Shown here piece after piece: positions 57,493 to 63,910 of a stretch of DNA of 64,000 nucleotides. The stretch lies in NCBI RefSeq assembly GCF_044647545.1, contig NZ_CP172818.1; one strand, given 5' to 3'. A model generated the notes under the pieces. The model saw nothing but the letters and a program-made list of their open reading frames with translations. It had not been told where the DNA came from and ran no database searches. The position numbers and the translations under genes are program-made. The DNA comes from Escherichia coli (GTDB taxonomy: Bacteria > Pseudomonadota > Gammaproteobacteria > Enterobacterales > Enterobacteriaceae). Positions within the stretch are counted from its first letter, which is position 1; each line of letters opens with the position of its first letter.

Positions 57493-58316
57493 CTACAACT
57501 CATTCAGTATGTACTGGAACCGGCAAGTAGAATCGATTGGCTGCATACTGCTGGTATCAACACGCACGACCATATCGTGTAACTGTTTGTCCGTTATAGG
57601 GTGTCGATTTGGCGTGACCGAGACTTCCGCCTTGTCACATCCCGACGCGGTAAAAGTTATCATCTGTGCAACCCAGCGGCAGTAACCACCTGTTTCATTC
57701 ATCTGCGTACTGTCGCACAACTTCCCATCTTTCATCAAATACGTTGAAAGCGTTTTCTCAACCACACCGCCCGTCGACTGCAGGGTGAGCAGTTTTGACT
57801 TACTGACATAATTCTCATTCCATGAAACGTCATAAGGTTGAACAGCAGAAACGGATGGACAAATCGTGTCGTGACTATCAGGCCCCTGATACGTCACGCC
57901 CCTGGAGAGGCTTCAGAGTCATTCATAATAACCAACCATGGACAAGAAAAGTAAGATTCAATCTCTGCAGAGACAATAACCTCAAATCATAATACCCGCA
58001 GTTCCACCCAGACGGTAATCCAGGACAACTTGCTTTGTTGATATTTTGATGGTAGCCAATCAGCTTAACCGAAGGGCAGGAGGAGGACCACTCCAGCCCA
58101 CATTTTGCAATATTTCCCCAGTCATGAGCCATTGACTACTTTTATATTCACCAACGTACACTGCGGATGGCATCATTATTTTTAAATTAAAAGTCGCAAT
58201 ATTACGCGAATCACCGTTGTAACCGTAGAGCAAACGTCAACGCTATGCCCGGCAGCCATAGCTTCGGCAGCAGCAATAGACATGACCAGAGCGAACAACC
58301 ATCGTAGTATTTTCAT
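57493..58316 (-). pseudogene. yfcO: DUF2544-like gene with multiple reading-frame changes
   Basis: ATG at 58316 gives a signal-peptide-like MKILRWLFALVMSIAAAEAMA then stops after 44 codons; coding-like sequence continues in other frames (69-codon ORF 57923..58132, 134-codon ORF 57493..57897); total span 824 nt. Confidence 0.55.
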
Positions 58317-58317
58317 T

Positions 58318-58854
58318 TTAAATATACTCAAATGTCGCAGTTAAAGAGGCGGTAAATTCACCGATCGTCACATCACGGCCGCTTTTCGCCTGTAGCCAGG
58401 CTCTGAAATTGATATCGTTATTGCCATTGGTTAGCGCAAAGGTCGCCCCATTTGTATTGTTGATGGCAACGGCATTCCGTCGGTTTTTTCCATGCCAATT
58501 CCCACTCCCTGAGCGGTTGATGACGTATCCAGTGCCAGAAAACCGGGTTGTTCGCTGTCTTTATCCCGCGAGCGTGACTTTTACGTTGTATCCCGCCGGC
58601 CCTTTGCAATCTTTCAGCTTAAAGACTACGGGTACACGAGCGGACTGGCCTGCAACGTTCAAATCCTGACGACTGACCGTGGGAAAGCGCACCTCTGCCA
58701 GATATTGGCCATCCACCACCAGCGCACAGGATTTACTTAATAAATTACCGGAGAAATGCAGATTATTATCTGCCGCGAATAACGTGCTACTCATTGCCAA
58801 TATCAGCCCCGCTAACAGGACGTAACCACCGGACTGAATCATTGATTTATTCAT
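58318..58854 (-). pseudogene. yfcP: Fimbrial subunit-like gene interrupted by an in-frame TAA or paired frameshifts
   Basis: 97-codon ORF (signal peptide MNKSMIQSGGYVLLAGLILA) ends at TAA 58561..58563; the same frame reopens and ends with fimbrial C-terminal strand GEFTASLTATFEYI at 58318; the +1 frame is open across the gap (58434..58580). Confidence 0.55.
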
Positions 58855-59338
58855 TGATAATCCACCCGTAATGTTGCGTAAGCCGAAAAATTCGTATCGC
58901 TTAACACAGCATCACTCGCTTTTACCGGTACGGCCTCCAGCTTCGGCTTTTGCGTAAAATCAGTGGCGTTGATAGCAGCGGAGTATTGAGTTTAAAACGC
59001 TGACCATCGTGCTGAAGCTCGATACCAAAACCGGGTACATCAGTTTTAATTGCTGCATCATTAAAACTGGTTTGTGTACCAGTCCAGGTGAGGGTCATCT
59101 CCCAATCTGGATGACGGGTCGTCGAGTCACAAGTGAGTTCATATGGCACCTCTTTACGACCATAGTTGCCGTTGATGTCGTCGATAATGAGATCGCGAAA
59201 TTCGACTTCAATGGTTTTACCACCGCTGATGCTACAGGTTGGCGGTGACAATAATGTCCCGTGAAAGGTGATGTCTTCATCAGCAGCATGAGCTATGGCG
59301 CTACTGACACAAAGCAGGGTTAAGAAAGTCTTTCTCAT
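58851..59338 (-). pseudogene. yfcQ: Fimbrial subunit-like gene with -1 frameshift near 3' end
   Basis: 138-codon ORF ends in non-fimbrial tail RKSRSWRPYR; alternative frame carries fimbrial C-terminus SAYATLRVDYQ and its TGA overlaps the yfcP ATG; span is 488 nt, one short of in-frame. Confidence 0.6.
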
Positions 59339-59823
59339 TGATAGTCCACCACCATGGTCAAACTGGCGTTAAACTCGCCCGCAGCAAGTTGCGCCCCGCT
59401 TGCCTTCACAGGTACAGCCTTCAACTGTGGCTGGTTATTGATATTAAATGGCGTCCAGCTATTTTCACCGACGGCAAACAATGAGTTATCGGCGCTATTT
59501 TCTATCCGAATGCCCAGCCCGGTGATATTGGTACTGAGTACCGTTTCGCCGTTAATCGTTGAGGTATTGCCCTTAAGTTGCATCCGCAAGTCGTTAGCAA
59601 GACTGTTTGTGCAGTTCAACGTGTATTTCGCATCTTGCCGATAATTGGTGCCATCAACGTTATCAGCAATCATATTACCGAACTCCACCTCCGCGCCCGT
59701 TACCGTACAAGGAGGCGGAGCATCAACAAGCACCCGTAAAATCATATCCACCGATTTGCTCCCTGCCGTCACGGAGCAACTACCGATGCAGCCCACCAGC
59801 AACCACGCCCACGATCCTTTCAT
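59335..59823 (-). CDS. yfcR: Fimbrial subunit-like protein
   Basis: Start at MKGSWAWLLVGC (162 aa) preceded by GGGAG Shine-Dalgarno; C-terminal strand LTMVVDYQ; the ORF track start at 59889 would overlap yfcS. Confidence 0.75.
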   Translation of the reverse strand: MKGSWAWLLVGCIGSCSVTAGSKSVDMILRVLVDAPPPCTVTGAEVEFGNMIADNVDGTNYRQDAKYTLNCTNSLANDLRMQLKGNTSTINGETVLSTNITGLGIRIENSADNSLFAVGENSWTPFNINNQPQLKAVPVKASGAQLAAGEFNASLTMVVDYQ

Positions 59824-63269: not shown

Positions 63270-63307
63270 ATCCGTTTGTGAAACAGTCGTAAATCTGTTG
63301 CGTGTTG

Positions 63308-63335
63308 AAAAACCCCACAGCAGAACGCTGTGGGG
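63308..63335 (-). terminator. Hairpin with U run between yfcV and usher (intra-operon attenuator)
   Basis: Stem ccccacag/ctgtgggg; on minus strand followed by 5 U. Confidence 0.5.
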
Positions 63336-63343
63336 TTGTCACA

Positions 63344-63910
63344 TCAGAGATAGGTAATCTGGAATGTGGTCAGGGTTTCGAACTGGCCGAGATCCGGCGC
63401 TTCGGTTTCACCCACCAGCCAGGCTTTAAAGTTCAGCGTTTGCTTGTCTTTACCTTTGCTGGTTGAAGCATCCATCACGATTGGCTGAACAATCTTTTCG
63501 CCCACTTTATAACCTTTGCCATGGGTATCGCCGATCACCAGGCTCACATTCTTCATGGCAACACCGCTGTCAACGTTGAATAACGCATAGTTATCTGTGT
63601 TGGCTGGCCCCGCGTAGTTAGTACCGGTGAACGTGGTCTCCATGTTTGTTTCAGTGGAAAACACGCAGTCCTGTAAACGGATCTGGAAATCTTTCGGTGT
63701 GGTGGTGCCACCGCCGGTCAGTTTAGCCGCACCGATGTCACCCATATCGACTTCCAGTTTGTGATCGTCTGGAACGATAGAGCACGGGGAGTCTTCAATG
63801 GTGCCGTAGAAGCGCGCGGTACCGTTGTTGCCTGCTGCAAATGCAGAACTGGAAACAACTGCGCCCATGACCATCGCCGCAGCAATGGCTGTTTTGGCAA
63901 ACTTACTCAT
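63344..63910 (-). CDS. yfcV: Major fimbrial subunit
   Basis: 188 aa; signal peptide MSKFAKTAIAAAMVMGAVVSSSAFA; C-terminal strand TLTTFQITYL. Confidence 0.82.
   Translation of the reverse strand: MSKFAKTAIAAAMVMGAVVSSSAFAAGNNGTARFYGTIEDSPCSIVPDDHKLEVDMGDIGAAKLTGGGTTTPKDFQIRLQDCVFSTETNMETTFTGTNYAGPANTDNYALFNVDSGVAMKNVSLVIGDTHGKGYKVGEKIVQPIVMDASTSKGKDKQTLNFKAWLVGETEAPDLGQFETLTTFQITYL

Follow-up and report, generated by a model that had tools for sequence, protein, structure and literature searches.

Whether a fimbrial operon has decayed in a living lineage, or has been damaged in the making of a genome record, is the question raised by the yfc locus in a 64,000-nucleotide (nt) stretch of an Escherichia coli chromosome (contig NZ_CP172818.1), the whole of which is referred to here as the window. 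The chromosomal segment in the window extends from nuo past ackA-pta, hisJQMP and fabB to aroC-prmB-smrB-yfc, and its yfc operon is placed between smrB and sixA, as in K-12. The operon aligns from end to end with the annotated yfcV-U-S-R-Q-P-O genes of K-12, ECONIH1 (a clinical strain, NZ_CP009859.1, which we take to belong to the sequence type 648 (ST648) group) and MS 21-1, and thus is of the Yfc/Stf chaperone-usher type. Reading frames were established by a six-frame scan for open reading frames (ORFs) together with base-level alignment to K-12 MG1655. The genes for the major subunit (yfcV), the usher (yfcU), the chaperone (yfcS) and YfcR are open, as stated in the first-pass annotation of this DNA, although yfcR, while open, is chimeric; yfcQ, yfcP and yfcO are each frame-disrupted, as had also been stated. 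The reversal that the same annotation had described relative to K-12 is borne out by the annotation of MG1655, in which yfcU is a pseudogene with an internal stop and yfcO, yfcP, yfcQ, yfcR and yfcS are intact, whereas in the window the usher is intact and the distal genes are frameshifted.

The description of the locus as a case of mosaic decay can be upheld only in part: the frame disruptions are real in the sequence as given, but the lesions fall in an allelic chimera, and the reading of them as decay does not stand. They are attributed here, with a probability of about 0.8, to errors in a chimeric, reference-guided consensus on a K-12-like backbone, and not to mutations of a living lineage.

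A K-12-type patch in an ECONIH1-type chromosome

The window is 100.000% identical to ECONIH1 from position 1 to 41724, 99.95% identical from 41000 to 57421 (one substitution, one 6-bp deletion and one 1-bp deletion) and 99.93% identical from 59674 to 64000 (two substitutions and one 1-bp deletion), the last value being the same when counted from 59677. At sites distinguishing ECONIH1 from the K-12-like genome HS-01, the window is ECONIH1-like at 253 of 255 on the left and at 1186 of 1189 on the right, and no K-12-specific single nucleotide polymorphisms (SNPs) were found in the flanks, outside the patch that separates them. This patch (57422-59676) is the K-12 allele outside the lesion clusters, and the gene order of the operon is that of K-12 yfcOPQRSUV throughout, whereas the usher, chaperone and major subunit genes of the window are of another allele class, with approximately 83% DNA identity to K-12.

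The borders of the patch are sharp. On the left, ECONIH1-specific bases end 10 nt short of the smrB stop codon, and directly after the TGA the sequence is K-12-type; at this switch the two alleles have just 9 nt in common, TTGCCCTGA. On the right, the switch lies between 59671 and 59677 in yfcR, where approximately 3 nt are common to the alleles and where allele identity is approximately 55% on one side and approximately 70% on the other. Both borders are situated at the exact edge of allele alignability. The yfc operon of the window is an allelic chimera, yfcR included: residues 1-50 of the YfcR fusion are ECONIH1-type and residues 51-162 are K-12-type.

In ECONIH1, the position of the patch is occupied by 4.3 kb that comprise the Septu genes ptuA and ptuB, followed by divergent, intact yfcO-, yfcP- and yfcQ-like genes that are approximately 59-69% identical to those of K-12. 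In this locus, of the StfH/YfcO family, ptuA, ptuB, yfcO, yfcP, yfcQ and the 3' part of yfcR are all annotated as intact, whereas the window is without the 4.3 kb. The Septu assignment rests on full-length matches to PtuA (1.6e-168) and PtuB (4.5e-95); in RefSeq the two genes are labelled merely as AAA ATPase and hypothetical protein. The pair is located at positions 16515-18515 of the ECONIH1 locus (L001) and at 134-2135 of the MS 21-1 locus (L003), corresponding to the point 57421/57422 of the window. MS 21-1, which combines different allele classes, thus has PtuA and PtuB with intact divergent yfcO, yfcP and yfcQ at the same spot, whereas neither the window nor K-12-type genomes have this cassette of approximately 2 kb. 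The junction between smrB and the adhesin gene is a small variable defence hotspot, and the sole large ECONIH1-specific insertion of these 64 kb is the one that is missing from the window. A search with the locus gave a best match of at least 99% identity in 117 complete genomes; these are presumably ECONIH1-type matches to its core part.

Exchange of the RecA type requires tens of identical bases and is expected to leave donor SNPs in homologous flanks. Among 5,426 complete E. coli genomes, no record spans the yfcR junction (59450-59900) above 86.6% identity. With switches of 9 nt and approximately 3 nt, clean flanks and a junction found in no other genome, the patch therefore lacks the marks of a natural homologous-recombination mosaic. 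Sharp, in-register switches at the points where alignment becomes possible are of the kind that a read-over-reference consensus yields, and the retention of backbone at an unalignable segment, the loss of the Septu cassette and an imprecise indel (insertion or deletion) in the mnmC-yfcL spacer together have the character of a reference-guided or chimeric artefact.

The explanation that survives best beside a chimeric consensus is that a real K-12-type yfcO/P/Q mosaic exists in an ECONIH1-type chromosome, the frameshifts being raw long-read errors in a patch that was left unpolished while the remainder was corrected, for example by homologue-based or by short-read polishing. This would be in keeping with a patch in which small clusters alone depart from clean K-12 or HS-01 sequence, with the natural mosaicism of the yfc locus in the species, of which MS 21-1 is an example, and with the recurrence in recent study-wise batches of a shortened run of five adenines (A5) in yfcA, which is read as a systematic, suspected long-read, error. 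It is nevertheless unlikely, as it demands crossovers at the two switches described above, the right one in sequence of approximately 70% identity, with no spill of K-12 SNPs and with a junction present in 0 of the 5,426 genomes. The chromosome, at 4.50 Mb, is moreover too small for an ECONIH1-like strain (ECONIH1 has 5.31 Mb), and K-12 bases occur within the non-K-12 alleles of the apparent sibling assemblies described below.

Frame disruptions in yfcO, yfcP and yfcQ

Every frame disruption of the three distal genes lies inside the K-12-type patch. Alignment to MG1655 resolves one indel event in yfcQ, three in yfcP and five in yfcO. The yfcQ lesion is the loss of an A (1 bp) at 58976, at approximately codon 121. 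The yfcP lesions are 1-bp deletions at 58469, 58561 and 58563, which belong to two compound clusters: loss of a C with T>G at 58469-71, and two 1-bp deletions with two substitutions at 58561-69. The yfcO gene has insertions of AG at 58227-8 (with T>C, 58227-31) and of CAG at 57843-5, and deletions of G at 58073, of G at 57987 (with T>C, 57987-8) and of C at 57898; it has besides a T>C substitution at 58098 and five substitutions in the signal peptide (58266-80). Elsewhere the patch is the MG1655 sequence, the differences being confined to approximately 12 small clusters between 57446 and 59047, and from 59048 to 59676 it is identical to K-12. Two of the patch substitutions are natural variants, namely C>T at 59047 in yfcQ, which is found in HS-01, and 58231C, which is found in E203449.

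The density and the spectrum of these changes set the patch apart. Nine indel events are packed into approximately 1.1 kb, and there are 0 differences from ECONIH1 over 41.7 kb of the same chromosome. Private lesion clusters number eleven within 1,626 nt, where 0.16 would be expected from the rest of the window (P = 3e-17), and six in the other 61.7 kb, a density approximately 70 times that of the flanks. Indel events and substitutions stand at 10:13 in the patch, compared with 1:39 between HS-01 and K-12, which are natural K-12-type genomes (P = 8e-5), and many of the patch events are compound, an indel being accompanied by a substitution at a distance of one or two bases. A spectrum and a density so unlike those of the flanks and of natural polymorphism argue against natural decay.

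The lesions are also unique. Over the lesion zone, the best identity among the 5,426 complete genomes was 97.5%, and none of these genomes has any of the frame-disrupting lesions; the genomes with a K-12-type allele number approximately 1,100, none of them above 97.5% identity over the zone. The three exact products that were tested (97, 138 and 162 amino acids) occur on one public contig only, of 4,499,902 bp, among approximately 15 billion proteins. A concatenated k-mer query of the variant clusters had a flawed design, in that neighbouring clusters gave a gapped match to every K-12-type genome, and established no more than that records do not extend beyond the region of clusters c4 to c7. 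No lesion is shared with related isolates or with independent assemblies, and the reproducibility that genuine pseudogenes would have is lacking.

Genuine lineage-specific pseudogenisation, in which the distal subunit and adhesin genes would have decayed by independent frameshifts while the assembly core was kept, is for these reasons very unlikely. In its favour are the frameshifts that the given sequence does contain, the frequency with which cryptic chaperone-usher operons become pseudogenes, and the broken usher of K-12 itself; in many natural K-12-type genomes, yfcO or yfcP carries an IS1, IS421, ISApl1 or IS903B insertion. Inactivation of the distal yfc genes does therefore occur in E. 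coli, but by means of insertion sequences rather than by multiple frameshifts. Against decay of this kind stand nine indel events in approximately 1.1 kb beside an unaltered 41.7 kb, an indel-to-substitution ratio approximately 30-fold above that of natural variation, the presence of the lesions in 0 of the approximately 1,100 genomes with a K-12-type allele and of the tested products on one contig, and the exact coincidence of the decay with an allelic patch that looks artificial. The first-pass annotation had offered lineage-specific inactivation by different routes as one of two possibilities; it finds no support in lesions that are unique, of aberrant spectrum, and restricted to a patch of foreign allele with borders that do not fit recombination. 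The evidence does support the other possibility offered, an assembly that is error-prone over a local stretch, which can be narrowed down to a K-12-type backbone segment in an ECONIH1-type consensus.

Apparent sibling assemblies and the origin of the errors

Three other chromosomes, BS-01, HS-01 and BS-04, come from a farm in Sukabumi, Indonesia, and group as one study-wise series; they appear to be a single batch. Their sizes are 4.49-4.52 Mb despite different lineages, and their nearest relatives have 4.66-4.84 Mb. The yfcA A5 frameshift is common to all three, in the same orientation and at similar coordinates. New protein accessions of these siblings (WP_400165594 and WP_400168279) are numerically close to WP_400164282 of the window, and we infer, short of proof, that the source of the window belongs to the Sukabumi batch.

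The same gene is damaged in two of the siblings. Within 10.4 kb, 72 positions distinguish BS-04 from YA-1, its nearest relative, and 71 of them lie within 610 nt of yfcO; these differences are mostly multi-base deletions, with K-12-specific strings embedded among them. The yfcO gene of BS-01 has approximately 14 indel events in 450 nt. BS-01 has in addition a stretch of approximately 600 nt, comprising the 5' part of yfcV and its upstream region (L009, 23032-23626), that is approximately 73-75% identical to every other allele, with approximately 45 gap openings. Of its 26 informative sites, 17 show the K-12 state. K-12 and the closest relative of BS-01 hardly differ from each other across the stretch, which looks like uncorrected read noise on a K-12-like backbone. 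The sibling records thus resemble the window in their yfcA homopolymer error, their size of approximately 4.5 Mb, their dense error bursts and their K-12 backbone bases. They differ from it in that the allele of the sample has been partly written over the backbone in BS-01 and BS-04, giving a blend, whereas in the window the backbone is nearly unchanged over 2.3 kb. The garbling of yfcO with K-12 states in both BS-04 and BS-01 is the recurrence in siblings that an artefact would show, provided that the batch is as proposed here.

A separate observation was made in HS-01 (L007, 6952-9771, elaD to yfbM), in which elaD and a hypothetical gene are annotated as frameshifted and yfbM as truncated; between elaD and nuoN, yfbK and yfbL are lacking. 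The batch may accordingly have other defects of assembly.

The size of the chromosome and the position of the patch borders could also be explained if the isolate were a real hybrid, in which a K-12-like (phylogroup A) recipient had received an ECONIH1-type block by conjugation, the non-homologous yfcO-R core being recipient DNA that subsequently underwent local error-prone repair. Matings of clinical donors with MG1655 readily give rise to hybrid E. coli chromosomes (PMC13127887; PMC9659338). Heterology should bring a donor tract to an end, in agreement with the positions of the borders, and 4.50 Mb fits a K-12-like background. We know of no process in E. coli, however, that yields approximately 7 lesions per kb within 1.6 kb and nowhere else, and the compound events resemble consensus errors. 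The right junction lies in approximately 70% identity without a stretch of identity long enough for exchange, and three unrelated siblings are of the same size, two of them with the same gene garbled; such a hybrid is, if anything, slightly less probable than pseudogenisation. Least probable of all is a genuine hybrid (ECONIH1-type DNA in a K-12-like background, or the reverse) that lost three fimbrial genes at once through strictly local, indel-rich mutagenesis tied to recombination at the borders of heterology. The literature on this batch, or on hybrids of ST648 with K-12, yielded only general papers on hybrid chromosomes, and nothing on these accessions.

If the frame disruptions are errors of a chimeric consensus, the course of events may have been as follows. 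The sequenced isolate would be an ECONIH1-like strain, and the deposited chromosome would rest on a K-12-like backbone, being either a reference-guided consensus or a reference polished with long reads. Reads alignable at approximately 70% identity or better would overwrite the backbone, giving sequence identical to ECONIH1. From the smrB stop codon to the middle of yfcR, where the allele of the isolate would be approximately 59-69% identical and would include the 2-kb Septu insertion, the reads could not be placed and the backbone would stay. A few badly supported calls would then corrupt the retained backbone, giving indels with adjacent substitutions, and where reads aligned poorly, as may have happened in yfcO of BS-01 and BS-04, a garbled blend would result. 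The edits might derive from a few misplaced reads or, as speculation, from cross-talk reads of a K-12-like sample such as HS-01, and the latter would account for the 59047T that the window and HS-01 have in common. The real strain most probably carries intact ECONIH1-type ptuA, ptuB, yfcO, yfcP, yfcQ and yfcR.

Several points weigh against a chimeric consensus, or at least against this account of it. The exact assembly pipeline is itself inferred. Only 2-3 of the 13 patch substitutions match the ECONIH1 allele, with approximately 1.7 expected by chance; islands of local conservation show no excess of clusters, and the origin of the individual errors is unexplained. The 630 nt at 59048-59676 are as divergent from ECONIH1 as the remainder of the patch, yet are free of errors, and for a consensus built from long reads the ECONIH1-type parts are strikingly clean. 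The link between the window and the batch is circumstantial, consisting of contig size, proximity of accessions, the common yfcA error and a gap in the accession series.

Two candidate mechanisms for the individual errors were dropped. Bleed-through or gene conversion from the ECONIH1 allele was abandoned on the near-chance count of matches given above, which was obtained by an alignment independent of the window; direct alignment of the window gave more ECONIH1 matches, but is biased towards the window. As for errors at methylation motifs, two clusters adjoin CCWGG and several changes are of the form G[T>C]A, but the association is unsystematic and such errors are absent from the identical 41.7-kb flank.

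The yfc lesions are almost certainly not a real biological feature, and there is nothing biologically new in them. Their significance is that a RefSeq-annotated E. coli chromosome, and apparently a few sibling "complete genomes", hold backbone-derived sequence and local bursts of error. Such records are misleading for pseudogene counts, for fimbrial and adhesin typing, for pangenome work and for surveys of defence systems (the Septu cassette having been lost here), and the chimeric YfcR already has an accession of its own (WP_400164282.1). Where "mosaic decay" is noted in hypervariable adhesin loci, allele class and the identity of the flanks should be checked before an evolutionary reading is adopted, and the source record of the window merits flagging.

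Feature coordinates and other departures from ECONIH1

Table 1. Positions in the window of the yfc operon, the K-12-type patch and other features in which the window was compared with ECONIH1 and K-12
Feature	Position	Strand	Remarks
smrB	56870..57421	+	ECONIH1-type; 100% identical to ECONIH1 up to 57421; left border of patch
K-12-type patch	57422..59676		smrB-yfcO spacer to mid-yfcR; in place of the ECONIH1-type 4.3-kb segment
yfcO (adhesin) remnant	57493..58316	-	824 nt versus 822 in K-12; 4 ORF fragments
yfcP remnant	58318..58854	-	537 nt versus 540 in K-12; first ORF stops after 97 amino acids
yfcQ remnant	58851..59338	-	488 nt versus 489 in K-12; product cut to 138 amino acids
yfcR, chimeric	59335..59823	-	open frame, 162 amino acids; exact product WP_400164282.1
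yfcS (chaperone)	59840..60592	-	250 amino acids; ECONIH1-type; protein identical to ECONIH1
yfcU (usher)	60612..63263	-	883 amino acids; intact; ECONIH1-type
yfcV (major subunit)	63344..63910	-	188 amino acids; ECONIH1-type; protein identical to ECONIH1
yfcA, frameshifted	53016..53824	-	1-bp deletion in A-run (A6 to A5), at approximately codon 20
mnmC-yfcL spacer deletion	52146..52160		6 bp (CACATT) short relative to ECONIH1

Outside the patch, the usher differs from that of ECONIH1 by a sole amino acid change, P857A (a private G>C substitution at 60695), and its gene has a synonymous change at 61257. The A5 run of yfcA lies at 53761-53765, and a private A>C substitution is found 20 nt away, at 53745. 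The A5 state is present in 44 of 5,404 complete E. coli genomes, which group by study (CP127xxx, CP146xxx, CP166xxx, CP172816/17/19 and CP196xxx) and not by lineage; this study-wise clustering points to a recurrent sequencing or consensus error rather than a polymorphism. The A5 run was also considered as a marker of HS-01 ancestry and was rejected as such, the 44 genomes being unrelated.

At the exact position of the 6-bp deletion in the mnmC-yfcL spacer, K-12 and HS-01 have an extra repeat-like stretch of approximately 71 nt. Apart from the patch, this stretch is all that distinguishes K-12 from ECONIH1 structurally in the window. Here the window matches neither ECONIH1 nor K-12, the 6-bp deletion being novel. 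A private 1-bp deletion in a CC dinucleotide was also noted at 63948, upstream of yfcV.

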